Translations under genes and position numbers: made by a program
Notes under the pieces: generated by a model
Told to the model about the DNA's origin: nothing
Seen by the model: only the letters and a program-made list of their open reading frames with translations
The model's database searches: none
In this document: one piece after another, positions 2,941 through 55,237 of the stretch
Position numbering within the stretch: position 1 is the first letter of the stretch
How the letters are laid out: each line of letters starts with the position of its first letter
From: Candidatus Omnitrophota bacterium
GTDB lineage: Bacteria; Omnitrophota; Gorgyraeia; JAHJTE01
Reading direction: 5' to 3'
Length of the DNA: 64,000 nucleotides
NCBI GenBank assembly: GCA_018830005.1
Contig: JAHJTE010000003.1
Location: 71,674 to 135,673, forward strand

Positions 2941-2955
2941 GCTCTTGAATCACTG

Positions 2956-3585
2956 GTGGAAACGTATATGAAAAACATAATGATTTTATTCAAATCCAGA
3001 TATTCTAAACGAAACAGAGATTCACTAAAGGGCTTCTCTCTTATCGAACTATGTATCTCAATAGCGATCATGGGCATTTTAGCAGTTATCTTTGCTCCTG
3101 TAATGAGCATGGGTATAGAGTCAGCCCTTTTTAACCTGGACCGTAATTATGTAATAAGAGAGGCTAGAGGCGTTCTTCATACCATGGCCATGGAGATAAG
3201 TAGGGCTGATGTAATAGATGATTCTGACTCTGCCTCTATTACGTTTCATCCTGCAGGAATACCTCCTGCTGACCGGGTGACGTTTACCAGCTCAGGGACG
3301 AGTCAAGAAAACGTTGCTAGGAGCTACTTTGATGATGCTAGCTCTTCAACAACAACTAAGACGATCACTCTTTGTTGCGATAATCCTCCCTGCTGCGACA
3401 GTCCACCTTGTCTGCCGGTGTATTTTGAATATGTGCCATATTGGGGAGGAGTAACCTGGAATTCTTGTGGAGCAGGAATAAATTGTAACGAGGTTCGATT
3501 AGTTAGAATACAGTTGCGCATGAACAGAGAAAGCGGCAGTGAGATTACGCTAACCACAAGTGTAAGACTGCGTAATATGCAATGA
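2956..3585 (+). CDS. Prepilin-type N-terminal cleavage/methylation domain protein
   Basis: KGFSLIELCISIAIMGILAV class III signal. Cys-rich C-terminal region (CCDNPPCCDSPPC). Confidence 0.65.
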   Translation: METYMKNIMILFKSRYSKRNRDSLKGFSLIELCISIAIMGILAVIFAPVMSMGIESALFNLDRNYVIREARGVLHTMAMEISRADVIDDSDSASITFHPAGIPPADRVTFTSSGTSQENVARSYFDDASSSTTTKTITLCCDNPPCCDSPPCLPVYFEYVPYWGGVTWNSCGAGINCNEVRLVRIQLRMNRESGSEITLTTSVRLRNMQ

Positions 3586-3595
3586 GGCTATAATC

Positions 3596-39636: not shown

Positions 39637-39638
39637 TT

Positions 39639-40670
39639 TTAGACTTGGGCTTCTTTCAAGTATTTAGCTGCTAACTCTGGCGAGACTGGATTAATATAAA
39701 AACCGCTTCCCCATTCAAATCCCGCTACCTTAGTAAGCTTGGGGAAAAGCTCTATATGCCAATGATAATCCTGTTCGATTGTCTGCCAATAGCCAGTACG
39801 AGAGAAACGATTTGGCGAGGCATGAATTATGTAATTATATTCAGGATCATTTAATACTTTATTATATCTGGCCAGAATTACCTTTAAGATGTCCGCCAGA
39901 GACCTTATGTCCTGCTTTATCTTTGGATCATAGAAATCAATGCTGTGCTCTTTGGGCATTATACAAACCTCGAATGGAAAACGCGAGGCATAAGGACAAA
40001 AGCTTATAAATGCGTCATTCTCGTAGATTATCCTTTCCCCCCAGGACTTCTCCTGCTCCATTAAATCGCAGAAAATACAGCGTTCCTTCATCTTAAAATA
40101 TAAATTCGCGCCCTTTAATTCTTCCTTCACTCTTTTGGGGGTAATCGGAAGGGCTATAATCTGATGATGCGGATGCGCCAAAGAGGCTCCGGCATTGCTT
40201 CCTTTATTTTTAAAAACCAGGATGTAACGAAACCTGTGGTCTTTATGCAAATCTTCGATTCTATATTGAAGCACGCTTATGACATCCACAATCTCATCAA
40301 TTGACTGATCTTTTATTTCTTTATGGTGGTCTGTATTTTCAATAACCACTTCGTGTGCTCCGAAATTAGTCATCATGTCATGAAGTCCGAATCCTTTTTT
40401 CTCAATGGGGATATCAATGCTTAAGGCTGGAAACTTATTCGGCACCACTCTTATGCGCCAGCCTGGCTCATCGGGCTTTGTGTTGGGATCGCGTAAGCTA
40501 TAAATTTCAGGCGGGGTTATCTTTTCCTTACCAACGCAAAAAGGGCATTTCTCAATATTATCCGGAGGGCTTTCTTTTTTCTCGCTGACAAAAGCGTCAG
40601 GCCGCTTATTTCTCTCTGTGGCAATAATTACCCATCTACCCAAAACCGGATCTTTTCTAAGTTCTCCCAT
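39639..40670 (-). CDS. GalT-like HIT-family hexose-1-phosphate nucleotidyltransferase (possible ADP-glucose phosphorylase)
   Basis: CPFCVG zinc motif and HPHHQI active-site HxHxQ motif. Sits 3 nt downstream of glgA. Confidence 0.75.
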   Translation of the reverse strand: MGELRKDPVLGRWVIIATERNKRPDAFVSEKKESPPDNIEKCPFCVGKEKITPPEIYSLRDPNTKPDEPGWRIRVVPNKFPALSIDIPIEKKGFGLHDMMTNFGAHEVVIENTDHHKEIKDQSIDEIVDVISVLQYRIEDLHKDHRFRYILVFKNKGSNAGASLAHPHHQIIALPITPKRVKEELKGANLYFKMKERCIFCDLMEQEKSWGERIIYENDAFISFCPYASRFPFEVCIMPKEHSIDFYDPKIKQDIRSLADILKVILARYNKVLNDPEYNYIIHASPNRFSRTGYWQTIEQDYHWHIELFPKLTKVAGFEWGSGFYINPVSPELAAKYLKEAQV

Positions 40671-40779
40671 ATGCCCTCTCTTTCAACAATATGACTTAAC
40701 TTATAGCCGAATAAAACAAAATTTAAAAAATAATTAACTATGCGATTATATCAAAATTCCCCACAAAGTCAATAAGTTG

Positions 40780-42219
40780 CTAGGATTTTTCGATTGCCTC
40801 CATGCCTCTACGGCAGATCTCTCTTGCATATTCTGTCCAGATACCTTTGCCCCAATAGCGAAAACAACTTGTTTGAGAAAGCAATAAATATAGAAGTGCC
40901 TGCCGATATTTCGGATCCGGACAATCCATAGGCGTATCATCAAAGCGTTCATGAAAACGAGCGCTTAATTTATTTATCGGATCTAGGATATCCATATACC
41001 CTTTCACCCAGTTTTTATCGTTTGTCCAGGAGGCCTTTTCTAGATTAATCTGTCCGTATTTATTTTTTGCCTTCTGGATAGCCTCTTCAACTGCCCGGGG
41101 AGAAAACTTATTAACGAATTCCCAAATTTTATGCTGGGATATCGGCTGGACCGGCAAAAAGTCCTCCTCTTTAACCCGCTCTCTTTTTATATATTCAAAA
41201 TACTCGCTTACATTTAAAGCGACCGTTCCTTCCCGGCCTATTTCATTAAATACCTCTTTATATTTAGGAGGAAACTCATTCATCATCACCCCGCCGTTTT
41301 CTCCATCACTTATTTGTAATACCAAAGGCGGTAGGCTCTTTTTGGCATACTCCTCTCTCTGTCTCGATTTTGCTTCATAATAAGGTTGCATCTGGGCTAC
41401 CAGTTTGGTATCCGAACCCTGCGTCTTTATGAATACAGCTATCTCCTGAGTCTTACCAAAAGAATTCTTGGCAATTAGTCGGTGGGGAAAATGCGGCCTT
41501 CGTATAGGAGAACCGTCTAGATTCTCGATAGTGTGCTCCTGAACAAGCAACCATTCATAACCTGCCTCTTTTAAGGCCTTTATATATTCAAAACAGACAT
41601 CTGGATGAATAGGCAGTTGCATCTCCGGCGCAGAAAAACCTTTCAGGCGATTAAGCGCCTCCTGGCCGAATATAGCGCCAAAATGATTTCTCCAGGCGCG
41701 GATATGCAAAGATATATCAGGAACCGGAGTTGAGCTAACCACTGCATGAGACCACATTGTGCCTAACCACTCTAGAGAGGGATAATATTTCTTATCAACC
41801 GTTATCTGGCTTAGATTATCCAAGACCTTTGCCTCTCCCATCTGGCGCAATCCCCACAAGAGATTTCCGGAATAATCTAACATTATCCGCGGATGAAGCC
41901 CTTTATCTAGGAGTTCTCTGATTATATCTGACATACGCGAATAACAACTCAGGAATACCGGGGCATTATGGTTATCCCCGATATTCTGGTGCTTCATCAT
42001 ATATTCTAGATTGCTTATAAGGCCAGCCCTGGCTAAATCATCGCCTTGGGCCGGAATGGTAGGTTGATGCATATGCAAGGCAATAGCAAAAGCAGTATTA
42101 ATCTTATCAAAGGGAAGACTGCTGAAAGGGGCAAAAAGCTCTTTTTCTGTTTTCTTTCTTTCTTTTGATTTTATATTTTGGCTGAAAATATTTGGCAGGC
42201 CAGCCACTATATCTTTCAT
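40780..42219 (-). CDS. GH57 family glycoside hydrolase-like protein
   Basis: N-terminal IALHMHQP (GH57 HxHQP region 1). Adjacent to the GH57 branching enzyme. Confidence 0.5.
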   Translation of the reverse strand: MKDIVAGLPNIFSQNIKSKERKKTEKELFAPFSSLPFDKINTAFAIALHMHQPTIPAQGDDLARAGLISNLEYMMKHQNIGDNHNAPVFLSCYSRMSDIIRELLDKGLHPRIMLDYSGNLLWGLRQMGEAKVLDNLSQITVDKKYYPSLEWLGTMWSHAVVSSTPVPDISLHIRAWRNHFGAIFGQEALNRLKGFSAPEMQLPIHPDVCFEYIKALKEAGYEWLLVQEHTIENLDGSPIRRPHFPHRLIAKNSFGKTQEIAVFIKTQGSDTKLVAQMQPYYEAKSRQREEYAKKSLPPLVLQISDGENGGVMMNEFPPKYKEVFNEIGREGTVALNVSEYFEYIKRERVKEEDFLPVQPISQHKIWEFVNKFSPRAVEEAIQKAKNKYGQINLEKASWTNDKNWVKGYMDILDPINKLSARFHERFDDTPMDCPDPKYRQALLYLLLSQTSCFRYWGKGIWTEYAREICRRGMEAIEKS

Positions 42220-42222
42220 TGT

Positions 42223-43851
42223 TTATATATTCTTATTTGCCGATTCTCTCTTTAATATAAAATATTTTGCACAATCCATATCTGCAAATATATTGTCCCT
42301 AGCTTCAACCTCTCCTAACCATTCATTATCTATTGTATTGTTGACGATGTCATTATAGAGACGTTTGAATCTAGAAAGATGTACTTTGACTCTTTTCTGC
42401 GCATAAGGCACCATTGTTCCTGTTTTCATAATAAATGCCCAATCACTGGCCTGGGTAAGCAATAATTCCCGGCCAGCCTGGTTCAAAGCCCTCCGGTAAA
42501 GGTCATGTTTTGCCTTATCAGAATAAGTGTCCAATATTTCAGAGAGTTCTCTCATCTTCTCTCCGGCAGCATGCACATGCCTATAGAGCCAATCATTACT
42601 ACCTTCTACCCAAACGTCATTATAGCCTTTATAGCCCCAGCTGGAAGAAGAAGGCAGACACATTTGATTAGTAGGATATTCGCCCAAATACTGCGAAGGA
42701 GTAATCATGCTTATTGTCTGCTGGTCATAAAATATTTTGCGCGCTAGAAAATCTATCCACATCGGCCCTTCGAACCACCAGTGGCCAAAGAGCTCTGCAT
42801 CATAAGGAGCAACTATAATCGGTTTCCTGTCCATAGTCGAGAGAAGATGTTGGACCTGCTTCTCTCGGTTAAACATAAAATTTCCTGCGTGCTCTGCTGC
42901 CTTGTCTTTGGCTGCCTGCGGAGAATAGGCCTCTTTATAATCGCTGTTACCGGTAATCCGCCAATATTTTAAGCCGGTATTTATGCGTATTCCGGCAGGA
43001 TGAATATAAGGCTTTATATAATCATAATCCAATTCGTAACCGATATCTTTATAATATTCTCTGTAGACAGGATCACCTGGGTATCCCTCTTTTGAGCTCC
43101 AGACCTGCTTTGAAGACTCCCAGTCCCGGGCAAAGGCAGCTACGCCGGAAGGGCAATAAACCGGAGCATATACGCTGTAACGCGGCAAAGGATCCGCGTT
43201 TAGAATACCGTGGGAATCTAAGAAGAAATATCTTATGCCCGCTTCTTTTAGGGCCTCATCAAGGCCCGGATAATAACCGCATTCCGGAAGCCAGAATCCT
43301 TTGGGATCCCGGCCAAAGGTCTTTTTATAATGTTGGACTCCTATATTAACTTGGGCTGCTACATCAGAAGGATTTAAGCAAAGCAAAGGCAAGAATCCGT
43401 GAGTGGCACAGGAAGCGACTATCTCAACATAGCCTAAATCCTGGAAGGCCTTAAAGGCTTCCACGATATCCTTATTGTATCTGTTAGAGAATATTTCCTT
43501 TGCCTCGACTAGCTTGCGATGATACATCAGAGCCAACCCATGAAAATAAGGATCGTAACCTGTCCTTTCTATTTCTTTGGCTGCTAATTCAATTGATCTG
43601 TCAATATGCCGCTGGTATCTATTCTGCAATAGGGGGTCTTTTAACATCGAGACCAGAGGCGGGGTCAAAGACATAGTAATTCTAAAATCTACCCCATCTT
43701 TGATGAGCCTATCAAAAACCTTTATCAGAGGAATATATGTTTCAGTAATAGCCTCATACAGCCAGTTCTCCTCAAGAAAATATTCCTCTTCCGGATGTCT
43801 TACGAACGGCAAGTGTGCGTGAAGCATTAAACAAAGGTAACCTTGAGCCAT
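42223..43851 (-). CDS. GH57 1,4-alpha-glucan branching enzyme (TK1436/Rv3031-type)
   Basis: N-terminal GYLCLMLHAHLPFVRHPE, and conserved blocks GFWLPECGY and APYDAELFGHWWFEG. Confidence 0.85.
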   Translation of the reverse strand: MAQGYLCLMLHAHLPFVRHPEEEYFLEENWLYEAITETYIPLIKVFDRLIKDGVDFRITMSLTPPLVSMLKDPLLQNRYQRHIDRSIELAAKEIERTGYDPYFHGLALMYHRKLVEAKEIFSNRYNKDIVEAFKAFQDLGYVEIVASCATHGFLPLLCLNPSDVAAQVNIGVQHYKKTFGRDPKGFWLPECGYYPGLDEALKEAGIRYFFLDSHGILNADPLPRYSVYAPVYCPSGVAAFARDWESSKQVWSSKEGYPGDPVYREYYKDIGYELDYDYIKPYIHPAGIRINTGLKYWRITGNSDYKEAYSPQAAKDKAAEHAGNFMFNREKQVQHLLSTMDRKPIIVAPYDAELFGHWWFEGPMWIDFLARKIFYDQQTISMITPSQYLGEYPTNQMCLPSSSSWGYKGYNDVWVEGSNDWLYRHVHAAGEKMRELSEILDTYSDKAKHDLYRRALNQAGRELLLTQASDWAFIMKTGTMVPYAQKRVKVHLSRFKRLYNDIVNNTIDNEWLGEVEARDNIFADMDCAKYFILKRESANKNI

Positions 43852-43855
43852 ATTT

Positions 43856-45133
43856 CTATTTCTCTTTATCGGTTCTTCTCTCTACCCTGGTATCTATTTT
43901 TCTTTTCTGGCTCTTATCCTTAGACTCTGCTTTAAATTCTAAAGGTATAATACCATCTGAGGGTAAAGAAAATCTTAAACTAAACGTACCGTCTTTATTT
44001 AAATTAATCTTTTTATCTCCTAACCAGACTTGGGCATCTGATTCTGTGCGTCCGTAAACAATTAATTCTGTTGACAGCTCAAAGAAGAACTTCCTTTCTA
44101 TCCTCTCCTGAACTAATTCACTAGCCCCGGGCTGTTTTATGCGCTCTTCGCTACCACCCGGGCCTAAAACAACCATGCTTTCAGAAGCGCCCAAGAAAAT
44201 CCTCCTTAAGGAATAACCTTTGGGTAAACCGGCAAGGGTCCTGCGCCTTTCTTTTTCGGTCTCTCCTTCTAAAAGTAAGTTAAGGCCTCTGCCCTTTCTG
44301 CCAAAATAACTGAGTAAGCGGGCGGATATAATATCTCTCAATGAAGGATTCAGGCGTGAATAATAACTTCTTATGTCCTCATCGGTAAGATAAATCCTCC
44401 TTAGGCCTTTCTTTTGATATTGGGCAGCGGATATCGATGCGTCTTTACTAACAGCTATGCTCGGTCTTACAAAAACGGATTCCTTACTACCGTCCTGAAC
44501 ATTCATCCATATCTGTTCGCTGCGGGGAGAATAGCTAACACGGGGAGTATGGACACAGTTTGATCTAGCCAAGGAAATAAATCTGCCTCCAGCAGTACGC
44601 AAACCTATCTCCGCTATGTAAGAAACGCCATCCTTGTAGAGATTTACATACCAGTTATTTGCATAGATATCAACCTCAATATCAAAATAACTATTTGCAT
44701 TAGTGCCGTTAAAGTCTAGGAGAGTCACATCATACATTCTCAAGACAGTCTTTGCTGTTCTGATCTCTTCGTCACTGAGCCTTGACTTTAAAGAGTTCAG
44801 ATTATCAAATGGAATCTCCCAATAGGCAAAAACCCAAAACGGATCCTTAACCATCAGCCTTACGCGATTTAGGCCGTAATCAGCGGGAAACTGGTAATCA
44901 TCTATCCAATGCCTCTTCTGGGGTAGACCTTCATCTACTGGCAAACGCAGAGGCTTCTTTTTCTCAGCCGGGCCTGAAACAAGAGAAGTTTTACTCACAA
45001 GGGCTGCGGCTTTTCTTGCTGCGGAAACAGGCTTGGGATGTTTAGCCTTAGGATAGGTCTTTTCTTTAGCGCCAGAGACGGTTATCTCTCTTCCTTTTTC
45101 GTAGACACGTTTTATTATCTTCTGTCTTTTCAT
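43856..45133 (-). CDS. DUF4912-like protein with basic N-terminal tail
   Basis: Lys-rich N-terminus, then the WVFAYWEI block. Confidence 0.35.
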   Translation of the reverse strand: MKRQKIIKRVYEKGREITVSGAKEKTYPKAKHPKPVSAARKAAALVSKTSLVSGPAEKKKPLRLPVDEGLPQKRHWIDDYQFPADYGLNRVRLMVKDPFWVFAYWEIPFDNLNSLKSRLSDEEIRTAKTVLRMYDVTLLDFNGTNANSYFDIEVDIYANNWYVNLYKDGVSYIAEIGLRTAGGRFISLARSNCVHTPRVSYSPRSEQIWMNVQDGSKESVFVRPSIAVSKDASISAAQYQKKGLRRIYLTDEDIRSYYSRLNPSLRDIISARLLSYFGRKGRGLNLLLEGETEKERRRTLAGLPKGYSLRRIFLGASESMVVLGPGGSEERIKQPGASELVQERIERKFFFELSTELIVYGRTESDAQVWLGDKKINLNKDGTFSLRFSLPSDGIIPLEFKAESKDKSQKRKIDTRVERRTDKEK

Positions 45134-45185
45134 TCGCTTTACTAAAGCCTAAAACGCTAAATTAATTAAAAAAGATTTAAAGCCT

Positions 45186-46346
45186 TTAGCTGTGGTAGAC
45201 ATTTAATACCTGCTCTGCAATGGTATCCCAGGAAAATGCTGTCTCAACTGCGATCCTGCCGTTTCTACCCATCCATCTTAGGTGATCAAAATCACTAAAA
45301 GCTGTTCCTACTCCCCAGGAAACTGAGTCAGTATTAGGATAAACTTTTAGGCCATTAACATCATGCCAAACTATTTCGCTGGGGCCGCCGTTTGATGAAA
45401 CAATGACCGGCTTTCCTGCGCTCCATGCCTCTAAGATAACTATTCCGAATGGTTCGTTTCTACTGGGGATGCAGATAATATCAGAGGCCCTATATAAATC
45501 AATTAGTCTCCAGCCATTAACATAGCCTAGGAATTTAGTTGCGGAGCTTAAACCCATATGCCTTGCCGTCTCCTGAACATGCCCTCGCATCGAACCGTCT
45601 CCGACAAAGACAAATTTCGCATTATTGTAATACTTAAGTATGTTAGGTATTGCCTCCATCAGTAAATCCGGCCCCTTTTGATAGACCATCCTTCCTACAA
45701 ACAAAACAACCGGATCCATGGGCCCGATATCATAAACACGCCGCACAGAAGCTGAATCTATCCAGCCGTCATAGTTTCTATAATTTATACCATTATAAAT
45801 AACAGAAACCTTAGAATCCGGCAAATTATAAACCCACATTATCTCATTTTTTAAAGCATTGGAGACCGCTATCGCCCTATCTGCGCAATAGCTACCATGC
45901 TTTTCATGATCCATTATCCTGGCAGAATTACCGCCAAAAAAGTTATTGCCGCATCTGCCATATTCAGTGGAATGAATGGTAAGTATTGACTTATGGCCTC
46001 TACCCTCTTTTATCCAGACCAAGGCATTGGAAGTAAGCCAATCATGAGCATGGATAACGTCAAATTCGCCTACATAATCCTCTGTTTTAAAGAAACTCTC
46101 CGTAAAGGAACGGCACATATTATTTATCTCTTCTAGGAAATCGTTGCCAGAACTAAAAGGACAACGGTGATAATGAACACCATGTATCCTTTCATACCAG
46201 GCCTGTCCCCCATCACCTAGACGAGTAAACAGATGTACTTCATTGCCTTTTCTCTCCAGGGCACAGGCAAGTTCTGTAACATGGAAAGCGACGCCACCCA
46301 CACTTATTGAATGCATGGATTCCCATGCAAAAAGTGCGATACGCAT
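45186..46346 (-). CDS. GT4 family alpha-glucosyltransferase (Rv3032/GlgA-like)
   Basis: MRIALFAWESMHSISVGGVAFHVTELACAL N-terminus and GT-B C-terminal EX7E-type region (EPFGIVILEAWSAGKPVI). Confidence 0.75.
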   Translation of the reverse strand: MRIALFAWESMHSISVGGVAFHVTELACALERKGNEVHLFTRLGDGGQAWYERIHGVHYHRCPFSSGNDFLEEINNMCRSFTESFFKTEDYVGEFDVIHAHDWLTSNALVWIKEGRGHKSILTIHSTEYGRCGNNFFGGNSARIMDHEKHGSYCADRAIAVSNALKNEIMWVYNLPDSKVSVIYNGINYRNYDGWIDSASVRRVYDIGPMDPVVLFVGRMVYQKGPDLLMEAIPNILKYYNNAKFVFVGDGSMRGHVQETARHMGLSSATKFLGYVNGWRLIDLYRASDIICIPSRNEPFGIVILEAWSAGKPVIVSSNGGPSEIVWHDVNGLKVYPNTDSVSWGVGTAFSDFDHLRWMGRNGRIAVETAFSWDTIAEQVLNVYHS

Positions 46347-46372
46347 TTTTAGCCTTTTTTAATTATTAAATT

Positions 46373-46651
46373 TTAAATTTCTATGACTGAATTTTCAGTG
46401 CCTATTGCACTCAGAGACTTATTTGAGTTATTAGGATCAGCCATCCAATTGCCGTCAACTACGAATTTATACTCGTATCTGCCTGGCTTAAGAACGACCT
46501 CTTTCTTCCAGATGTTATCCTTGCTTTTTTTAAGCAATATCTTCTTCTCGTCCCATTTGTTAAAATCTCCCGCTAGGCTAACTTTGCTTGCTTGCTGGGC
46601 CTCAAGCATAAAGATTACTTTAGCCCCTTTCTGGTTCTTCTTCCTTGCCAT
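46373..46651 (-). CDS. Stand-alone CBM48 / AMPK-beta-type glycogen-binding domain protein
   Basis: KVSLAGDFNKWDEKKILLKK...WKKEVVLKPGRYEYKFVVDGNWMADPNN is a classic CBM48 signature. Confidence 0.7.
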   Translation of the reverse strand: MARKKNQKGAKVIFMLEAQQASKVSLAGDFNKWDEKKILLKKSKDNIWKKEVVLKPGRYEYKFVVDGNWMADPNNSNKSLSAIGTENSVIEI

Positions 46652-46903
46652 ATTACACCTCCTAATGTAATTTGTTATGATTTTTAACAACTTAACTTTT
46701 CCTTCTCTAGGCTTCTCATTACTGTAAAAGTATTATATAAAGAGCCTATACTATATTATATCTTCGGGAAGAAGTAAATAAGCAAAAATACCTAGTTTGC
46801 CTGTATTTTTTTGCTTAGCCAGAAAAACCATATTTAAAGGATGATTTTTATCTTAACTTTATTAATAAGAATGAGTTAGGAAAATTGAGGTGGGTAAATT
46901 AAG

Positions 46904-47554
46904 CTATACGCTTATTATCCCTTCTTTTATAGCAAATCTTACAAGCTGAGCTTGATTATGCAGGTTTAGCTTGCGCATTATATTATTCCTATGAACCAGT
47001 ACGGTTTTAGTGGAGAGTTTGAATTTTTGAGCTATCTCTTTACTGCTTAGGCCTTCGGCAATAAGCTGGATAATCTCTCTTTCGCGCAGGGTAAGAATGG
47101 CTTTACTTCTTAGCCTGATAGCCGGCTTTCTTTTAAAAAGATAATCTTCTATTACAAAAGAGGAAATCTTTGAACTTAAAAAATATTTTCCTGAATAAAC
47201 CTCTCTGATAGCATGGGCTATCTCATCAGCTGCCGAATCCTTTAGGATGTAGCCCTTGATGCCGTAACCAAGGGCCTCTTCAACAAAGGCTCGGTTCTCA
47301 TGCATGCTTAAAATCAGGATTTTTATCTTTTTGTTCTGCTTGATTATCTGATAACTAGCATCAAGGCCGTTTAGCTGCGGTAAGGTAATATCCATAATAA
47401 CAATATCCGGGGATTTTTCTTTCGCTATCCTTACTGCCTCTTTTCCATCTGAGGCCTCGGCCACTACTGAAATATCCGGCTCTTTGGCAAGCACGCTTTT
47501 GATACCTTGCTTGACTACCTCATGATCGTCTACTAACATTACTTCAATCGCCAT
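46904..47554 (-). CDS. NarL/LuxR-family response regulator
   Basis: REC domain (LVDDHEVV...DIVIMDITLP) and LuxR HTH (LTLREREIIQLIAEGLSSKEIAQKFKLSTKTV). Confidence 0.85.
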   Translation of the reverse strand: MAIEVMLVDDHEVVKQGIKSVLAKEPDISVVAEASDGKEAVRIAKEKSPDIVIMDITLPQLNGLDASYQIIKQNKKIKILILSMHENRAFVEEALGYGIKGYILKDSAADEIAHAIREVYSGKYFLSSKISSFVIEDYLFKRKPAIRLRSKAILTLREREIIQLIAEGLSSKEIAQKFKLSTKTVLVHRNNIMRKLNLHNQAQLVRFAIKEGIISV

Positions 47555-47591
47555 ATTAGATTTTCCTTAAATCTATAAGCAGAAAAAAATC

Positions 47592-48326
47592 CTAAGCTAT
47601 AGGCAGGATAACGGAAATCTTTGTGCCCTTGCCAGAAGAAGAGGTTATTTTTAAATCACCATCTAAGATGTCCACTCTTTCTTTTATCCCCCGCAAGCCC
47701 ATCTTGGTTATCCCCGCCTCTCTCGTATGTTTGCCATAATCAAAGCCTTTTCCGTCATCTTCAATAATTAACTGGATACTATCTTGAGAAAGGATTAAGT
47801 TTACTTTAACTAAAGAAGCATCGGCATACTTGATTATATTATAGGTTGCCTCCTGGACTATACGGTAAAGAGTAATCTCTATGTCTTCCCTAAGCTTAAC
47901 TCCTTTGAGATTTTCGTCAAACTCTATTCTTATCGCGGGATTTGATTCGCTGCATTGGGCAAAAAATTCCCGAAAAACCGCAGAAAGCCCTAAAATATCT
48001 AAACCAGGCGGCCTTAAATTAAATGCCATAATCTTCATCTTAGCAGCCAGGCCTTTAATCAATTCTCTCACCTCCTCTATCTTCTCTAAGGCCTGCTGCA
48101 CACTGCCTTCTTTTATATCCCTCTCGATAATGTTAAGCGAAGCGCCCAAGGCCACCACAACCTGACCTGTTTCATCATGCAAGTCGCGGGATATTCTCTT
48201 TTTCTCCTCTTCTTGCAGCATAAATATTTTGCTAAAATGCTGCTTTATTATCTCTAAATTTCTCTGCATATCCAGAGGGACATTATCTAATTTGACTTTG
48301 GATTTCTTCCTATTTTTAGACATCAA
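47592..48326 (-). CDS. Soluble HisKA_3-type histidine kinase (no TM or sensor domain)
   Basis: ISRDLHDETGQ H-box and HATPase_c (DDGKGF). Only a ~40-aa N-terminal extension. Confidence 0.8.
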   Translation of the reverse strand: MMSKNRKKSKVKLDNVPLDMQRNLEIIKQHFSKIFMLQEEEKKRISRDLHDETGQVVVALGASLNIIERDIKEGSVQQALEKIEEVRELIKGLAAKMKIMAFNLRPPGLDILGLSAVFREFFAQCSESNPAIRIEFDENLKGVKLREDIEITLYRIVQEATYNIIKYADASLVKVNLILSQDSIQLIIEDDGKGFDYGKHTREAGITKMGLRGIKERVDILDGDLKITSSSGKGTKISVILPIA

Positions 48327-48341
48327 AAACCTCTATTTAAA

Positions 48342-49841
48342 TTATGACCTCTTGGCATTTTTGGTAATTTCCAGAAGCCTCTTAGAAATCTGCGGCTTAA
48401 GGCAAGACTGATCTAGCCTCCAGCGCCAATTACCTCTTTTTGTGGCAGGAAGATTCATCCTGGCCTCTTCTCCCAGGCCTAGAATATCCTGCATAGGGAT
48501 TATCACGGTATTGGCAACCGAAAACATGAGAAGTTTTATAAATTCCCAATTAATCTCCTTAAGGCTAACCTTCTTGCCTAAATATTTAAATACATTTTGC
48601 CTCTCTTGTCTGGAGGCCTCGTTCTTAAACCATCCCTTAATAGTATTATTATCGTGGGTACCGGTATAGGCAACGCAATTTTCTATAAAATTATGAGGCA
48701 GATAAGGATGTTTGTCAAGGTCTGCGTCAAAGCCAAAAAGAAGGATGCGCATACCGGGAAAACCAAAGTGTTTGATTACTGCCCGGACATCATCAGTAAT
48801 ATAGCCTAGGTCTTCGGCAATAATGCTAAGGTCTGGAAATTCTTCCTTTAATAACCTAAAGAAATCATAGGCCGGGGCCTTAACCCATTGACCTTTTATC
48901 GCTGTTTTTTGCTCTGAAGGAATTTGCCAATAAGCAACAAGTCCGCGGAAATGATCAATCCTTATTATATCAAAAGGATCAGAATTGAATCTTAGCCTTT
49001 GAAACCACCATTTAAAACCATTCTTCTTTAATATCTCCCAGCGATATATGGGATTTCCCCATCTCTGGCCGGTCTTGCTAAAATAATCCGGAGGCACGCC
49101 TGCGACAAAAGAGGGCATCTTCTCAGTATTAAGCTTAAAAAAATCAGGATTAGACCATACATCAGCGCTGTCATAACTTACATAAATGGGGATATCGCCA
49201 ATAAGCTTAATCCCGTTATTATTGCAATATTGTTTAAGACAAAACCATTGTTTAAAAAAGACAAATTGCAAAAACTTCTCTTTAGAAATTTCGTTTTTAA
49301 AATCATTCTTTATTTTATTTAAGGCCTGCGGCTTTCTGTCCCTTAAATCCTTAGTCCATTTGCCCCAAGGCCGGCTGTCAATATGTCTTTTTACTACTCT
49401 AAAAATTGAAAAATCCTCTAGCCAATATTGATTGTCCTTGCAAAACTTTTCGAAATCCTGTTTAGGTCCTGGGTCTTTTATAAAATTATTATAGGCGATT
49501 GAGAAAATCCCTTTTTTAAATCTGGTCACTTTAAGATAATCACACTGATTTTTTGAAAAACTTAGCCTTGGTTTAATATCGCTTCCTGATAATAAACCAT
49601 CCTTGACCAGCAACTCAGGACTAATCAATAGCGAATTTGCCCCAAAGGCAGAATTGCTGCTATAAGGAGAATTGTCGAATACCGGATCTGTAGGATTTAA
49701 AGGTAAAATCTGCCAATAACTTTGCTTGCTAAATTTCAAGAAATCAGCAAATTTATAAGCCTGGGGGCCTAAATCGCCTATGCCAAAGCCAGAGGCAAGT
49801 GAGGTAATGTGTAGGAGTATGCCGCTTGCTCTCCTGTTCAT
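48342..49841 (-). CDS. malQ: 4-alpha-glucanotransferase (amylomaltase, GH77)
   Basis: RASGILLHITSLASGFGIGDLG N-terminus, and IRIDHFRG and GDLPI-type motifs. Confidence 0.9.
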   Translation of the reverse strand: MNRRASGILLHITSLASGFGIGDLGPQAYKFADFLKFSKQSYWQILPLNPTDPVFDNSPYSSNSAFGANSLLISPELLVKDGLLSGSDIKPRLSFSKNQCDYLKVTRFKKGIFSIAYNNFIKDPGPKQDFEKFCKDNQYWLEDFSIFRVVKRHIDSRPWGKWTKDLRDRKPQALNKIKNDFKNEISKEKFLQFVFFKQWFCLKQYCNNNGIKLIGDIPIYVSYDSADVWSNPDFFKLNTEKMPSFVAGVPPDYFSKTGQRWGNPIYRWEILKKNGFKWWFQRLRFNSDPFDIIRIDHFRGLVAYWQIPSEQKTAIKGQWVKAPAYDFFRLLKEEFPDLSIIAEDLGYITDDVRAVIKHFGFPGMRILLFGFDADLDKHPYLPHNFIENCVAYTGTHDNNTIKGWFKNEASRQERQNVFKYLGKKVSLKEINWEFIKLLMFSVANTVIIPMQDILGLGEEARMNLPATKRGNWRWRLDQSCLKPQISKRLLEITKNAKRS

Positions 49842-51511
49842 TTTTTATCTTCTAGATTTAAGTATTCGGGAGTATACTCAAACAATCTCTTGACCTTCTT
49901 GGTGATAAATATGGAAGGTCTTACAAATGCCAGATAGGTTTTTGCGCCATTTTTTATTAAGGCATTGTTGCTTTTTGCTTTTTTAAGAAAAGAGAGATAT
50001 TCTTCTTCCAGATGGATCTTAGTAAATTCTGCGGCAAGTTGCATGGCCCGCCCAGCATGACGCATAATCTGAATATTCTCAACCCCTGATATATCATCAA
50101 AAAACCAGCCGCAACTAGTCTGCATTAACATCTGATGGCGCTGCATCTCTAAGAGTTTTATAATGTTAGATTTATCGATTGCGGTTAAATTCTTTTTCAC
50201 CCGCGTTGCTAAAAAATGTTCAATATTTCTAATAGTCCTGTTCAAAATAACTTCAATATAATTATTGCGTAAATCCCAGGGGTCTGCCGTAAAAGTAGAC
50301 ATCTCCTTTTCATAGATCTGGGCTAATTTTACGGTCAACCAACTGGTTGCCTCTCGCAAAGGTTCTCTCCAGGTCTGTTTCCAAGTCGGGTTCATTCCTG
50401 AACTGCAACCGCAATTCCCTCTCCAGCGCTCAATGCCATGAGAACAACTCCATGAGGTATTCTCTAGAATTAAGACCTCATGGCTAGGAGAAAATTTATC
50501 CAAATATTCACCATAAATCGTAATCTTAACGGCCGGGTCTTGCTCTAATTTCTTTAGACAATAGGCTAATGCCATATTGCCAAAACTATGGTGATGCCCA
50601 TAATTTTCTCCATCTGTAGCAATATGAACTAAGTGCGGACGACCCTCTTCCTTTCTAAAACCGGACAACAGGCGTTTAGTAAGATTCTCACCGTTTTTTA
50701 AAAGATTGCCGAATGATATTTCATTAGAGATGTCATGGTTATAGAAGAATATTACCAGTGATTTTTTTGAAGGCAGACGGCAAAGGTAAGGCATTTTTAA
50801 ATCAATCTTATCTTTATCTGTGCTCTGCCATTCTTTTTCTCCTATCTTCCTTACTGCCTTAGCCTGGTGAGGGGCAAGAATGGTAAACTTAATACCGCCT
50901 TGAGCTAATAATTCCAAGGTATCTAGGTCAACTGCTGTTTCAGGCAGCCACATTCCCTCTGGCTTCCTCTTGAAGCGGTATTCAAAATCACTTATGCCCC
51001 AGGCCACCTGAGTCTTTTTATCCTGCGAATTTGCCAAGGGCATAATTAAATGATTGTAACATTGAGCTAACGCCGAGCCGTGGCCTGAAAAATACTTCTT
51101 ACTCTCTTTGTCTGACTTAATTATTTCCTTATAGGTCTTTGGCTCGTTTTTCTCTAGCCAAGATAGGAGTGTAGACCCGAAATTAAAACTAATCCGGGTG
51201 TAATTGTTAAGCCGCTCGATAACCCTTTTTTTGGAATCGAGTATTGGAGAGGAGATATTTACAGAGTAACATTCTTTGCTAATCTTCTCATTCCAATCAT
51301 GGAACGGATATGCGCTATCTTGAACTTCAACCTCTTCCAACCAAGGGTTCTCCCGAGTCGGTTGATAAAAATGCCCGTGAATACATATATATTTTCTATG
51401 TTGACTCATCTCTTTGAAATATATTTTTTTGGCAAAAAGGGCCAAAAAATCCCTGCCCTGCCCTATAATTATACCATTATTTTCCCTAAAGTATTCAATT
51501 GATTTTTGCAA
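49838..51511 (-). CDS. GH57 family protein with DUF3536-type C-terminus (alpha-amylase-like)
   Basis: YICIHGHFYQPTRENPWLEEVEVQDSAYPFHDWNEKISKECY matches the N-terminal signature of cyanobacterial-type GH57/DUF3536 proteins. The true start may be the internal Met (MSQHRK). Confidence 0.7.
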   Translation of the reverse strand: MQKSIEYFRENNGIIIGQGRDFLALFAKKIYFKEMSQHRKYICIHGHFYQPTRENPWLEEVEVQDSAYPFHDWNEKISKECYSVNISSPILDSKKRVIERLNNYTRISFNFGSTLLSWLEKNEPKTYKEIIKSDKESKKYFSGHGSALAQCYNHLIMPLANSQDKKTQVAWGISDFEYRFKRKPEGMWLPETAVDLDTLELLAQGGIKFTILAPHQAKAVRKIGEKEWQSTDKDKIDLKMPYLCRLPSKKSLVIFFYNHDISNEISFGNLLKNGENLTKRLLSGFRKEEGRPHLVHIATDGENYGHHHSFGNMALAYCLKKLEQDPAVKITIYGEYLDKFSPSHEVLILENTSWSCSHGIERWRGNCGCSSGMNPTWKQTWREPLREATSWLTVKLAQIYEKEMSTFTADPWDLRNNYIEVILNRTIRNIEHFLATRVKKNLTAIDKSNIIKLLEMQRHQMLMQTSCGWFFDDISGVENIQIMRHAGRAMQLAAEFTKIHLEEEYLSFLKKAKSNNALIKNGAKTYLAFVRPSIFITKKVKRLFEYTPEYLNLEDKK

Positions 51512-51536
51512 AAATAAGTGCTAAATTATACTTAAT

Positions 51537-52196
51537 ATGTACACCCTCCTAGAAAACAATCTCCTTTCCAAACAAGACGCCAGGCGGCTAGAAAAATCCT
51601 TCTTTTCAAAACCCAGCCTTAAAAAAGCCACCAAAATAAAAAGTATCTCTCTAATATCCCTCCTGGTTATAATCTTGGCAACTGTTATAATTGTATTTAT
51701 ACAAAACTATAATATCCTAATCTTGCCCAGCTCTGATAGATTAATTAATGCCACTGACTTGCTTTCGGCAAAGCACCTAGTAGAGCTTGAGCTGATAAAG
51801 GACGCTGGCAATTCTAAAATTAAAAATTTTATATATCTCGATTCGCCTATCCAAAGAGAAATCGGCTTTAATATAAACTTTAAAGAAGAAACCGACCTAA
51901 ATAATGTCAAATTGATCGTGGTGATTAAAAAAACATTGCAAGATTTCAATCTTGATCTAATTTTACGGGATAAAAGTTTTAAGTCTAATGCCAGAAATCC
52001 AATCCATATACAGGTGAAGACACCGGACGCCAAATCAGAATTTATCCAGATACCTATTTCTTTTTACCAAGATACTAATTACAATTTAAACTTTACAAGA
52101 ATAAAACAAATAAGGCTTATTTTTTCTCAAAAAGAAGGAATCAATTCTCCGATTTTGGTAAAAAATATTTTTCTTCAAAAAACAAAGGACGGTTGA
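51537..52196 (+). CDS. Hypothetical single-pass membrane protein, co-operonic with the ParA-CBM48 ATPase
   Basis: Basic 35-aa N-terminus, one TM helix (SLISLLVIILATVIIVFI), ~160-aa C-terminal region. Stop is 2 nt before the ParA-like start. Confidence 0.45.
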   Translation: MYTLLENNLLSKQDARRLEKSFFSKPSLKKATKIKSISLISLLVIILATVIIVFIQNYNILILPSSDRLINATDLLSAKHLVELELIKDAGNSKIKNFIYLDSPIQREIGFNINFKEETDLNNVKLIVVIKKTLQDFNLDLILRDKSFKSNARNPIHIQVKTPDAKSEFIQIPISFYQDTNYNLNFTRIKQIRLIFSQKEGINSPILVKNIFLQKTKDG

Positions 52197-52197
52197 C

Positions 52198-53304
52198 ATG
52201 AAAATACTATCATTTGTAAATCAAAAAGGCGGCTGTGGCAAGACCACATCTGCGGTAAATTTAGCTTGGGCCATCTCTAATAAAGACTACCAAACACTGC
52301 TTATTGATTTAGATCCTCAAGCCCACGCTACATTTTCTCTGGCAGTTGAGCCTAAATTTACTACTGCTGATTTGTTCGAGAATATTACCAATAACAGCAA
52401 AATTGATTACCAAGATTTTGCTGATTTCCTTATCTCTCGTACTAAAAATTTATGGGTATTAGGCTCTAGCATCGGATTAAGTGCTATAGAAACTAGCTTG
52501 ACTAGTCAGGATTATAAATTAGACATTCTAAGGGAGCTGCTAGAATCTATCTCTTCCAATTTTGATTGTTGCGTTATTGATTGCCCTCCCAACCTGGGCA
52601 TCCTGACCTTAAATGCTCTTATCGCCAGTAATTATGCCCTTGCTCCCCTTGGCATATGCGAATTATCATTAAAAGGAGTAGAGAATTTAAATAATATAAT
52701 GACTTTACTGCGCAAACATAATCAAAAAATTCCTGAACTCTTTTATCTGGCAACCCAATTGGATAGGCGCTATAAATTCTCATATAAATTTATTGATAAA
52801 TTAAAAAATGAGCTGGGGGATAAATTACTCTCTACAATGATTCGAACCAATATCCGTTTAAGAGAAGCTGCTGCAGAAGGAAAAAGTATATATGAATTTA
52901 ATAGTGCTAGCCGGGGAGCCCAAGATTATTCCCAACTTGCGGATGAACTTGAAATAATTATGCAGCTGGAAAGAAAAGAGACCGCAACCCCGGAGGTGGT
53001 AATAGAAGAAGAAGCAAGAGAAATCAAAAATCGCATAGACGAAGATTCGGGTATAAAATTGTTTTTTAAAGGTAGGCACCTAAATGAGGTATTTGTGGTA
53101 GGCGAGTTTAACAGCTGGTGCAAAGATAATAATTTTAAATTAAAAAAGGTGGATGAAGAAAACTGGTGCATTACTCTGCCGCTTAAAAAAGGAACTTACC
53201 CTTATAAGTTCATTGCTGATGGGAGATGGATAAGTGATCCTGAAAATCCCCTGCGAGAAAAAGATCCTTTCGGAGGAGAAAACTCTATACTTTTGGTAAA
53301 GTAA
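52198..53304 (+). CDS. ParA/MinD-family P-loop ATPase fused to C-terminal CBM48 glycogen-binding domain
   Basis: Deviant Walker A NQKGGCGKTTSAVNLA with signature Lys, and ParA-like core (LLIDLDPQAH, DCVIIDCPPNLG). After a linker, the C-terminal ~100 aa reads GEFNSW...LKKGTYPYKFIADGRWISDPENP...GGENSILLV, a CBM48 signature. Confidence 0.8.
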   Translation: MKILSFVNQKGGCGKTTSAVNLAWAISNKDYQTLLIDLDPQAHATFSLAVEPKFTTADLFENITNNSKIDYQDFADFLISRTKNLWVLGSSIGLSAIETSLTSQDYKLDILRELLESISSNFDCCVIDCPPNLGILTLNALIASNYALAPLGICELSLKGVENLNNIMTLLRKHNQKIPELFYLATQLDRRYKFSYKFIDKLKNELGDKLLSTMIRTNIRLREAAAEGKSIYEFNSASRGAQDYSQLADELEIIMQLERKETATPEVVIEEEAREIKNRIDEDSGIKLFFKGRHLNEVFVVGEFNSWCKDNNFKLKKVDEENWCITLPLKKGTYPYKFIADGRWISDPENPLREKDPFGGENSILLVK

Positions 53305-53351
53305 TAGCCAAGTAACCTCCTTAGCCTTCCTAAATCCCCTTCTGTTTATAG

Positions 53352-54563
53352 TTAAAAGTATACTACATCTTCCTGATAGAACAAGGAGAGAAACAATAAC
53401 ATGTAGTCTCTTATATGGCGGGTTATGAGAAAATTATTACGTATATGCTCTCTGCCATTCTGGCCTAATTTCTTTGCATAGGAAGGACTGTTTAGAAGCT
53501 GCTTAATATTGTAAGCAGCCCCTTGAACCGAATGGCAAAGTAGACCTGAATATTTATGCTTTATTTGAAGGGGAATCCCTCCAACATTGGAGGCTACCAC
53601 AGGCTTAGCCTTCCAAAGTGCCTCAGCTACCGTAAGGCCAAATCCTTCCCGTAATGACTTCTGAACAATAACTGTTGATGCGCTCTGCAAAGCATTTATT
53701 TCAATATCATTTTGGGACATCAATAGAATATGTATATCTTTATCCTCTTTAGCCATTTCCTGAACCTCGGAAAAAACTTTAGCACCCTCCGGATCATCAG
53801 TTGCGCTGCCTCCGGCCAAAATCAGCTGACAATCTATATATCGTTTCACCAGCTTATATGCCTGGATAACCCCCAGAGGGTCTTTTAATCGGTCGAAACG
53901 GGATATCTGAGTAATAATAGGTTTATCTTGAATAATATTATATTTATGCAATACAGTTTTAATTGTCTCGGGCGGTAATTTTATATTTTTATCGCTTAAG
54001 GGATCAATGGAAGGAGAAATTAAATACTGCCTAATGGGCAGTGGTCGGGAAAAGGCCGGGGCAGAAAATACGGCAGAATCATATTTAACAATAAAATCCT
54101 TAAGGAAGGACCAGACTTTTTCATCAGGATTAGAAATATCAATATGGCAACGCCAAAGCCATTTATTAGCAGCTTTCTTTCTTATCAAGGCAATAGGTTG
54201 AGGATCATGTATATATACAATGTCTCCGTAGGTATTTACCTCTTCGATATTCTTTAAGCTAGTTTGCATAAATATATCAAAATCCCGCTGACCTATATCT
54301 TCAGGCTTTCCATGCAGGGCATTGTGGAATTTCTTAGTGACGGCAAAGAATTGTTCTCCTCCCTTTATCACATCCCACTTTGTTTGGACCCCTAGTTCGT
54401 TTAGGAGCGGAACCATTCTATTAAGAATCTCAGCTACTCCACCTCCCACTGCTGTAGAGTTAATATGCTGGATAACCTTACCTCTTAACTTTTCGGCAAT
54501 CAGCTTTAAATCGTCTATTACTGATTGATTTACAATAGGGATATAGTCATTTAGCTTTGCCAT
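53352..54563 (-). CDS. treT: Trehalose glycosyltransferring synthase (NDP-glucose:glucose)
   Basis: Blocks HINSTAVGGGVAEIL, HDPQPIALI, WLWRCHIDIS, PSIDPLSDKN, PIITQISRFD, REGFGLTVAEALWKAKPVV and NFLITRHIRDY align with archaeal/thermophile TreT. Confidence 0.85.
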   Translation of the reverse strand: MAKLNDYIPIVNQSVIDDLKLIAEKLRGKVIQHINSTAVGGGVAEILNRMVPLLNELGVQTKWDVIKGGEQFFAVTKKFHNALHGKPEDIGQRDFDIFMQTSLKNIEEVNTYGDIVYIHDPQPIALIRKKAANKWLWRCHIDISNPDEKVWSFLKDFIVKYDSAVFSAPAFSRPLPIRQYLISPSIDPLSDKNIKLPPETIKTVLHKYNIIQDKPIITQISRFDRLKDPLGVIQAYKLVKRYIDCQLILAGGSATDDPEGAKVFSEVQEMAKEDKDIHILLMSQNDIEINALQSASTVIVQKSLREGFGLTVAEALWKAKPVVASNVGGIPLQIKHKYSGLLCHSVQGAAYNIKQLLNSPSYAKKLGQNGREHIRNNFLITRHIRDYMLLFLSLFYQEDVVYF

Positions 54564-54568
54564 GGCGC

Positions 54569-55237
54569 TTAACGAATTCTCTTCTTTATTACTCTAATCA
54601 ATGTTTTTCTCAAATCTTCAAGGGTATGAGTATAAGGATCTAGACTAGCTATTTCCTCGGCAAGGCGTTTATCATCAAAGGAAGAGATTATCCAGTTAGA
54701 AAAATCATTTGAGCCCTTTTCCAGCCTTAAACGTGCCTCAAATATATGAAAATATATAGAATCAATGGTAACCTTTTTTAAGATATCCAAGAATTCTTTC
54801 AAATTATTAGCTATATGATGGGTAGGAATGATAAAACTCACTGACTTTATAAAGTGGAATTCTTCATTCTGCCTAGCAAATCTTAACTTGGCTGATGGGT
54901 TACTTTCTAGATAGGCTTGGATGCTAGTAATTAATGCCTCTCTAAGAGCGCGTATGTTATTAAATTGTATGGTGTCAATACTGGCTAGCTGCTCTCCTAA
55001 CTCATCTTCACTCAAGGCCTCGCTAACCCAATAGGCAAAATCATTTGGCGGTTCTGGAGAGAGGTATTGATGTTGCTGTAAAAATCTATGGGTATGGTGG
55101 TATATGCAAGAACCAGGCACCTCCTTGAGTAGATTTAATAGCTGCTCTAGATTAGTCGCCTTAAATCCTGTTAACTCTGATAAGTGTAACCTGGTATAAA
55201 ATCTGAATGGCTCCTTAGCTGCTCTCTGCCTTTTCAT
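54569..55237 (-). CDS. Hypothetical protein co-operonic with treT
   Basis: 222-aa soluble protein; 6-nt spacing to treT. No recognisable motif. Confidence 0.4.
   Translation of the reverse strand: MKRQRAAKEPFRFYTRLHLSELTGFKATNLEQLLNLLKEVPGSCIYHHTHRFLQQHQYLSPEPPNDFAYWVSEALSEDELGEQLASIDTIQFNNIRALREALITSIQAYLESNPSAKLRFARQNEEFHFIKSVSFIIPTHHIANNLKEFLDILKKVTIDSIYFHIFEARLRLEKGSNDFSNWIISSFDDKRLAEEIASLDPYTHTLEDLRKTLIRVIKKRIR

Follow-up and report, generated by a model that had tools for sequence, protein, structure and literature searches.

In a 2024 family review (PMC11407121) and a 2023 multi-cargo study (PMC10241942), the systems built on ParA/MinD-type ATPases serve DNA, carboxysomes, chemoreceptor arrays, flagella and the divisome, and the words glycogen, carbohydrate and granule do not occur there. 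The placement and inheritance of glycogen granules in bacteria is a largely unexplored subject. Here we describe a two-gene cassette from a 64,000-nucleotide (nt) stretch of DNA of Candidatus Omnitrophota bacterium (assembly GCA_018830005.1, contig JAHJTE010000003.1, positions 71,674 to 135,673), called the window below. The second gene encodes a ParA/Soj-type ATPase fused to a carbohydrate-binding module of the CBM48 type, and the gene directly upstream encodes a single-pass membrane protein, referred to as the partner. A preliminary description of the window, which read the cassette as a glycogen-granule positioning system, was aware of no ParA-based system of this kind, and none was found in the literature that we searched, a search that was not exhaustive and leaves room for earlier work.

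That the fusion and its partner constitute a genuine, conserved module is close to certain. The reading best supported by the sequences would be that of an ATP-switched glycogen handle with a membrane anchor, and we give an even chance to the broader proposal that the module spatially organises cytoplasmic α-glucan (glycogen) granules.

The ParA-CBM48 fusion and its family

Both open reading frames (ORFs) and every ATPase and CBM motif quoted in the preliminary description are present in the translation: NQKGGCGKTT, LIDLDPQ and IDCPPNLG for the ATPase, and GEFNSW, YPYKFIADGRW, DPENP and NSILLV for the C-terminal module. The distance between the genes, given there as 2 nt, is 1 nt, counted from the stop codon of the partner gene to the ATG of the fusion gene. 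The profile searches bear out the joining of a ParA-like ATPase to a CBM48-type domain, with the AAA_31 and AMPK1_CBM models both above their cut-offs. In Pfam, AAA_31 covers residues 1–176 (E = 1.2e-42, 146.3 bits against a cut-off of 27) and CbiA also matches (E = 3.9e-18, 66.1 bits against 25.4), the two together spanning residues 1–231; the ParA model PF10609 scores 32 bits against 27.1. The NCBIfam matches of the fusion are all ParA-like and all lie under their equivalog cut-offs. Searching the Protein Data Bank (PDB) by sequence with the N-terminal domain returned ParA 8ray_B (E = 1.4e-34), Thermus Soj 1wcv and Helicobacter Soj 6iub. An AlphaFold2 (AF2) model of the fusion, built with 37 homologs, has a mean predicted local distance difference test score (pLDDT) of 90.3 and shows two confident domains, the ATPase domain being mostly above 90.

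The catalytic elements of the ATPase are strongly conserved. Walker A' comprises Asp37 and Asp39 of the DLDPQ motif and Walker B comprises Asp128 of IDCPP; Lys10, Lys15, Thr16, Asp37 and Asp128 are invariant in 115 aligned fusions, and Asp39 is kept in 98%. The Walker A sequence KGGCGKT carries an invariant Cys where Soj has Val. As NQKGGCGK was one of two seed patterns in our metagenome scan, this Cys is not independent evidence in the metagenome set, while it is independent in the homology-derived set A2. Arg191 aligns with Arg182 of Thermus Soj, and an Arg is kept at this position in 112 of the 115 fusions. We take Arg182 to correspond to Arg189 of Bacillus subtilis Soj, an arginine that binds non-specific DNA (nsDNA), the second such residue being Arg218.

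The C-terminal module belongs to the AMPK-beta type. PF16561 (AMPK1_CBM) matches residues 296–367 (E = 7.7e-12, 45.7 bits against a gathering cut-off of 26.8), and the last 83 residues align to the carbohydrate-binding modules of AMPK beta1 and beta2 in the PDB sequence search (E = 3.5e-8). Polekhina et al. (2005) reportedly identified Trp100, Lys126, Trp133, Leu146 and Asn150 as the glycan contacts of AMPK beta1. These residues align to Trp307, Lys337, Trp344, Phe358 and Asn362 of the fusion, where the 115 sequences have Trp (100%), Lys or Arg (97%), Trp (99%), Phe or Tyr (88%) and Asn or Asp (97%), respectively. Conservation of both the ATPase catalytic residues and the CBM glycan-contact residues indicates that the two halves are under purifying selection for their canonical activities. 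All sequence-level hallmarks of the ParA/MinD superfamily and of the AMPK1_CBM/CBM48 module are present in the fusion, and the fusion probably binds glycogen through its CBM48.

The two domains are joined by a segment of variable length. In the window protein this linker contains a charged insertion of about 28 amino acids (aa), which appears as a gap in the A2 alignment of the 340-aa relatives and is modelled as a low-confidence helix; it accounts for a length of 368 aa against the usual 340. Across the family, variation in the linker gives proteins of 340 to about 460 aa.

The fusion is widespread. The exact window protein is deposited as 'AAA family ATPase [Candidatus Omnitrophica bacterium]', and at least 120 full-length clusters at the 90% identity level are 40–57% identical to it, with PF16561 on all 120 listed. 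A profile-seeded scan of metagenome contigs added 80 further loci, about 75 of them with full-length fusions, at 26–42% identity and 34–71% GC. An exhaustive HMMER search of representatives at 50% identity returned 795 proteins at E ≤ 1e-30, and approximately 100 of the best 150 are full-length fusions. A separate scan of genome contigs, with the window fusion as the single query, gave one alphaproteobacterial ParA (L003), which is irrelevant here, and nothing else. The deposition of an identical protein, together with more than 100 divergent full-length fusions, rules out a frameshift or assembly artefact, in agreement with the view that the fusion is real. Named hosts include many Omnitrophota, one Sedimentisphaerales bacterium (Planctomycetota) and the gammaproteobacterium Sulfuricaulis sp. 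(WP_296672664.1), a taxonomic spread that is based on few named cluster members. Public annotations of family members read 'AAA family ATPase' or 'chromosome partitioning protein'. Two loci (L081, 10001–11847, and L082, 405–2248) encode a 294-aa protein of the same ParA subfamily that lacks the CBM48, followed by a FleN/MinD-like protein of 314 aa with the N-terminal partner peptide KKRLGKGIEDISHLFLS.

Partner proteins and the proposed cycle

The 219-aa partner has no match in Pfam or NCBIfam, and as a single-sequence query it recovered only itself. A profile of seven sequences found 54 clusters, every named member of which is from Omnitrophota. In the clade of the window (clade A: the window, L001, L002, L004–L008 and L088–L091), a partner homolog of 219–236 aa lies directly upstream of the fusion gene on the same strand in 12 of 12 loci, at a spacing that ranges from a 4-nt overlap to 66 nt. 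The preliminary description had noted a single-pass membrane protein with a basic N-terminal peptide. The window protein has one predicted membrane helix with a basic stretch before it, and across the family the N-terminal peptide, which a Lys-rich stretch follows, is the best-conserved part of the protein. The family motif of the peptide is D[SA]xRL[KE]xxFFSxP. Nine columns are invariant in 52 partner sequences; Asp14, Arg17, Phe22 and Phe23 belong to the N-terminal motif, and the rest are Tyr58 and the [LV][RK]DxRFFSN motif of the C-terminal domain. Residues 11–22 are predicted to be helical in the AF2 model. Over the same 52 sequences, the 15 residues ahead of the transmembrane helix carry a median net charge of +9, against 0 after it, which predicts an N-in/C-out topology, with the peptide in the cytoplasm and the CBM-like jelly roll of about 145 residues outside it.

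According to PMC11407121 and PMC10241942, the partners of ParA/MinD ATPases contact their ATPase through the partner N-terminus. By this rule the upstream protein is regarded as the likely cognate partner of the fusion, and we propose that its N-terminal peptide may serve as the ATPase-interaction and stimulation peptide.

Comparable arrangements occur in other clades. A second Omnitrophota clade, clade B, contains 17 loci assigned by clustering and L020, assigned by a motif scan. Its upstream protein, of about 190 aa, is laid out like the partner in the window: IYEHLAKIYLD forms a conserved helix at the N-terminus, and there follow a stretch rich in Lys, a single transmembrane helix and a C-terminal domain that is rich in beta structure and gives weak CBM_17_28 and CIA30 signals. 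We treat the partners of clades A and B as analogous in architecture and not as homologs. In the remaining clades, the gene directly downstream of the fusion encodes an otherwise unrelated soluble protein of 180–500 aa, with N-termini such as KPLGRGLEDVSHLFLS, KRLGRGLEDISDIFIS, KRLGKGIEDISHLFLS, PRGLKDISHLFLS and similar. One of these neighbours is FleN/MinD-like and another has weak ParA and CbiA matches. The LGRGLEDVSHLFLS peptide on these unrelated proteins contains an LGRGL core, which Leonard et al. (2005) reportedly identified as the core of the chromosomal ParB/Spo0J N-terminus that stimulates Soj. The clade-A partner peptide resembles the LGRGLEDVSHLFLS peptide, and ARRLEKSFFS of the window reads as a shortened variant of GRGLEDVSHLFLS. 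In all, an adjacent co-directional ORF with one of three N-terminal motifs is present in 47 of 82 loci, compared with 4 of 645 other genes. In six high-GC loci (L050–L053, L062 and L064; for example L053, 3496–4149), the downstream partners are about 215 aa long, and their C-terminal region, GEIDLLA.D....L.IIDFE, recalls NucS/PD-(D/E)xK nuclease folds by eye, with no Pfam or PDB sequence match.

The LGRGL core of these partner peptides, the identity of the nearest solved relatives as Soj or ParA, the retention of the Soj-type arginine and the public label 'chromosome partitioning protein' would all be compatible with an ordinary partition ParA, whose cargo is chromosomal or plasmid DNA and whose CBM-like domain is an accessory, irrelevant or used for protein contacts. 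We consider this very unlikely. The adjacent genes scanned contain no ParB, helix-turn-helix or CTPase domain, the partner in the window is a membrane protein, the glycan-contact residues of the CBM48 are strongly conserved, and the cassette recurs beside α-glucan genes. Features of a ParABS system are likewise absent from the protein adjacent to the fusion, which has no Pfam or NCBIfam domain, ParB and parS having had no separate search; no further ParA homologue was found in the 64-kb window.

Membership of the same P-loop superfamily, a weak NCBIfam match to eps_fam and a transmembrane protein encoded immediately upstream also call to mind a split pair of the BY-kinase type (CapA/CapB), in which a cytoplasmic P-loop tyrosine kinase works with a transmembrane activator in polysaccharide synthesis. 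The ParA_partition and Soj matches are much stronger, and the C-terminus has no tyrosine cluster, being a CBM48 that ends in NSILLVK. Adaptors of the CapA/Wzz type cross the membrane with two helices and activate through a C-terminal peptide, while the partner here has one helix and its conserved peptide is N-terminal. With an eps_fam score of 39 bits against a cut-off of 108, we rejected this reading as scarcely credible. A MinD assignment was rejected as well: the fusion ends in a folded CBM48, its minD_bact score is 30 bits where the cut-off is 212.9, and no MinC or MinE match was found among the neighbours scanned.

A handle-and-anchor cycle can be proposed from these components. ATP binding would produce an ATPase dimer, whose two CBM48 modules on flexible linkers would hold a multivalent glucan particle with high avidity. 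The dimer would at the same time offer a docking site to the cytoplasmic N-terminal peptide of the partner and, with the partner in the inner membrane and its jelly roll outside the cytoplasm, would tie granules to the membrane. Because Arg191 aligns with the DNA-binding arginine of Soj, the nucleoid could act as a second surface. The peptide would then stimulate ATP hydrolysis, the dimer would dissociate and the link to the granule would be released; repeated cycles would distribute the granules and help their inheritance by daughter cells. The C-terminus, which the CBM48 occupies in the fusion, is the site of the membrane helix of MinD and of the DNA-binding surface of ParA. We infer the avidity of the dimer, the contact of the peptide with the ATPase and its stimulation, the choice of reference surface and any effect on granule distribution from this combination of parts.

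Genomic setting and linkage to glycogen genes

The preliminary description placed the cassette in a large glycogen/trehalose locus with glgA, three GH57 genes, malQ, a GT4 gene, a CBM48 gene and treT, and the Pfam and phmmer searches agree with it (Table 1). The cassette is on the plus strand and the glycogen and trehalose genes around it are all on the minus strand. The order from 38173 to 51511 is GlgA, a GalT-like protein, GH57, the GH57 branching enzyme, DUF4912, GT4, CBM48, a LuxR-type response regulator, a histidine kinase, MalQ and GH57-DUF3536. On the other side, the TreT and DUF5752 genes (53352–55237) are convergent with the cassette.

Table 1. Features of the cassette, its two proteins and the surrounding locus, in window coordinates
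Feature	Coordinates	Strand	Basis or description
Partner gene	51537–52196	+	219-aa ORF, single-pass membrane protein
Conserved N-terminal peptide SKQDARRLEKSFFSKP, partner residues 11–26	51567–51614	+	52-sequence alignment, model
Transmembrane helix, partner residues 36–57	51642–51707	+	AF2 helix, hydropathy 3.24, preceded by Lys/Arg-rich stretch
Beta jelly roll, partner residues 72–215	51750–52181	+	Galactose-binding-domain-like, CBM-type fold; predicted outside cytoplasm
Fusion gene	52198–53304	+	368-aa ORF, ParA/Soj-type ATPase + linker + CBM48
ParA/Soj-type deviant Walker A ATPase domain, residues 1–255	52198–52962	+	Pfam, PDB sequence search, AF2
Flexible charged linker, residues 256–284	52963–53049	+	Low pLDDT, 48–50 over residues 261–280
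CBM48/AMPK-beta-type module, residues 285–368 + stop codon	53050–53304	+	Pfam, PDB alignment
GlgA	38173–39636	-	Pfam
GH57	40780–42219	-	Pfam
GH57 branching enzyme with BE_C	42223–43851	-	Pfam
GT4	45186–46346	-	Pfam
Stand-alone CBM48, 105 aa	46373–46690	-	phmmer
MalQ	48342–49841	-	Pfam
GH57 with DUF3536	49838–51511	-	Pfam
TreT trehalose synthase	53352–54563	-	Pfam/NCBIfam
DUF5752 protein	54569–55237	-	Pfam/NCBIfam, E = 4e-71

The GH57-DUF3536 ORF as listed begins with a TTG at 51511, 25 nt from the ATG of the partner. Its true start looks like an internal Met that opens MSQHRKYICIHGHFYQP, at approximately 51409; with this start, the divergent genes would be separated by an intergenic region of about 127 nt (51409–51536). 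Scanning 51300–53500 for promoters and terminators gave counts no higher than in shuffled sequence, and we therefore draw no operon claim from them. The stand-alone CBM48, encoded between the GT4 and response regulator genes, is related to the CBM of the fusion (phmmer, E = 9e-16). A pair consisting of a HisKA_3 histidine kinase and a LuxR-type response regulator (46904–48326, minus strand) lies between the CBM48 gene and MalQ and may regulate the glycogen locus. At a distance, four consecutive plus-strand ORFs (1847–5011) resemble type II secretion/type IV pilus pseudopilins, and by eye three of the four have pilin-like N-termini (GFSLIEL, SLIELL).

Proximity to glycogen genes was followed across the other loci. 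Within fetched flanks of at most 10 kb, GH57 genes are found in five of the 12 clade-A loci (the window, L002, L006, L007 and L008), and L001 has a remnant. In L002, L006 and L007, a GH57 triplet lies 1–10 kb from the cassette in a conserved block with the order LpxA, partner-fusion, a protein of about 235 aa, cNMP-patatin, GH1-like, ACT, DUF2934, three GH57 genes and DUF4912; L002 lacks the cNMP-patatin, GH1-like and ACT genes, and in L006 DUF4912 lies beyond the fetched flank. A minus-strand block 3' of the cassette in L001, L005–L007 and L089 encodes a cNMP-binding patatin, a GH1-like protein and an ACT-domain protein, with DUF2934 also present in L001, L006 and L007. In clade B, the cassette is part of a co-directional array (L009–L036; for example L024, 5543–12000) composed of an AlgE-like outer-membrane protein, GH57, the type 2 partner, ParA-CBM48, a 109-aa protein with three transmembrane segments, and a 140-aa protein whose N-terminus is rich in Lys and whose C-terminus forms a small conserved domain. 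The GH57 gene of this array encodes about 515 aa; in 11 of 16 assessable loci it lies immediately upstream in the same orientation. In L029 (2490–6794), a 1434-aa fusion of a GT3 (eukaryote-type) glycogen synthase, DUF3417 and an α-glucan phosphorylase is encoded directly upstream of the ParA-CBM48 gene. By our rough estimate, which supposes a handful of GH57 genes in a genome, a random gene would have a GH57 gene within 10 kb by chance in a few percent of cases, which makes the repeated independent juxtaposition meaningful, though not decisive. Linkage to glycogen genes is thus recurrent, in several independent arrangements, and not universal.

The directly upstream GH57 genes of clade B, the GT3 synthase-phosphorylase of L029 and the insertion of the window cassette between GH57-DUF3536/MalQ and TreT would also suit a role in granule initiation or as an enzyme scaffold, in which the ATPase-CBM48 protein sets the site and number of glycogen particles, or recruits GH57 enzymes or GlgA, and existing granules are not transported. 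In plants, PTST2/MFP1 offers a parallel for this idea, with a CBM48 and a membrane-associated partner. We regard such a role as rather improbable: no enzyme-interaction motif was identified, the cassette is often distant from any glycogen enzyme gene, and a ParB-like stimulating peptide acting in a full ATPase cycle would speak for dynamic positioning.

Other neighbours and the topology of the partner direct attention to the envelope. As in AMPK beta, the CBM48 might report glycogen load, with the ATPase signalling to the membrane partner or receiving a periplasmic signal from the jelly roll, and with an envelope or transport process, such as import or export of glucan or polysaccharide, as the output; granules would then not be moved. 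Such a glycogen-status sensor or switch would account for a CBM-like partner domain predicted outside the cytoplasm, for the AlgE-like outer-membrane beta-barrel kept directly upstream in clade B, for Poly_export and Wzz genes downstream in several loci, and for the half of clade-A loci that have no nearby glycogen genes. On the other hand, domain scans of the partner reveal nothing recognisable from signalling or transport proteins, and only clade B has the outer-membrane and Wzz neighbours, which the window lacks. The review PMC11407121 presents its ParA/MinD systems as spatial organisers of cargo and does not describe them as transducers of signals. We judge a sensor or switch to be unlikely.

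Several observations weigh against the proposal that the cassette organises glycogen granules. The general CBM_48 model (PF02922) scores 19.6 bits on the fusion, under its cut-off of 22.4. The second DNA-binding arginine of Soj is not kept, position 220 being Lys, His or Arg in the 115 sequences. No GH57 gene lies within 10 kb in the six closest relatives examined (L004, L005 and L088–L091), and the expectation that the fusion would always be found in glycogen loci, raised in the preliminary description, consequently fails in its strict form. The clade-B loci include the AlgE-like outer-membrane protein gene, with Poly_export and Wzz genes farther downstream in several of them. The partners of clades A and B gave an hhalign probability of 10%, and homology between them was rejected. 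The regular expressions behind the count of N-terminal motifs were composed after the sequences had been viewed, so that the contrast with other genes is illustrative and carries no formal test. Finally, the large domain of the partner is predicted to be extracytoplasmic and not on the cargo, and this jelly roll could point to an envelope-related function.

The topology also bears on the form that positioning would take. As the partner is predicted to sit in the membrane, it would not be a small cargo-riding adaptor of the McdB or ParB kind, and the classical ratchet known from ParABS and McdAB, with its stimulator carried by the cargo, is not directly applicable. Anchoring or tethering appears at least as likely as nucleoid-based partitioning, and dynamic tethering or distribution along the membrane would be the more natural form of granule organisation.

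Relation to known positioning systems

The fusion family is broad, extending over Omnitrophota, Planctomycetota, Gammaproteobacteria and many unassigned metagenomic contigs, including high-GC ones, and its recognition would correct many annotations that now read 'AAA family ATPase' or 'chromosome partitioning protein'. As its two genes are small, its ligand is a known one and the point mutants to make are clear, the cassette would offer an experimental handle, and the module might serve as a portable tag for placing glucan particles in engineered cells.

The closest sequence relatives are the ParA/Soj-ParB/Spo0J systems. Common to both are the deviant Walker A motif with its signature Lys, Walker A', Walker B and an Arg that aligns with the nsDNA-binding Arg of Soj, and the LGRGL core of ParB is mirrored in the partner peptides of the sister clades. 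The cassette differs in having a membrane partner with a jelly roll predicted to be extracytoplasmic, a C-terminal CBM48, and the KGGCGKT Cys in place of the Soj Val.

McdA/McdB and other ParA systems for cargo other than DNA, as presented in PMC10241942 and PMC11407121, also dedicate a ParA-type ATPase to a metabolic inclusion, and they resemble the cassette in being two-gene modules with a fast-evolving, Pfam-less partner that has a conserved N-terminal contact. In the Mcd system, the partner is on the cargo and the ATPase on the nucleoid, whereas here the cargo-binding module is fused to the ATPase and the partner is predicted to be membrane-anchored, N-in/C-out.

With MinD/MinE, the cassette would have in common a surface-binding element at the extreme C-terminus, an avidity switch by dimerisation and release by the N-terminal peptide of a partner. 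In place of an amphipathic helix, the fusion has a folded CBM48 of about 85 aa attached through a flexible linker, and the ATPase is nearer to Soj than to MinD. This likeness allows a more general, tentative proposal, which we hold to be possible though on the doubtful side, namely that glycogen is the 'matrix' of the ATPase, a third support surface beside the nucleoid for ParA and the membrane for MinD. The CBM48 would replace the amphipathic helix of MinD, ATP-driven dimerisation would turn avid binding on and partner peptides would turn it off, and the family would amount to a general 'glycogen handle' with anchors that vary from lineage to lineage. Under the same tentative proposal, the partners would differ by clade, being membrane-anchored jelly-roll proteins in the two Omnitrophota clades and soluble or FleN-like proteins with LGRGL peptides elsewhere.

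Among glycogen-binding proteins, AMPK beta is a close counterpart, as the CBM48 of the fusion belongs to the AMPK1_CBM type and shares its glycan-contact residues. Stbd1 and PTST2/MFP1 link a glucan particle to a membrane-associated partner, a logic that the cassette would have in common with them. AMPK beta, Stbd1, laforin, SEX4 and PTST2/MFP1 are all eukaryotic, however, and none is known to be coupled to a ParA/MinD ATPase cycle. Relative to the known ParA positioning ATPases, the novelty would therefore lie in both cargo and wiring: if the proposal is true, a polysaccharide store joins the list of ParA cargos as a class of its own, with the cargo binder carried in cis on the motor and the partner acting as the anchor.

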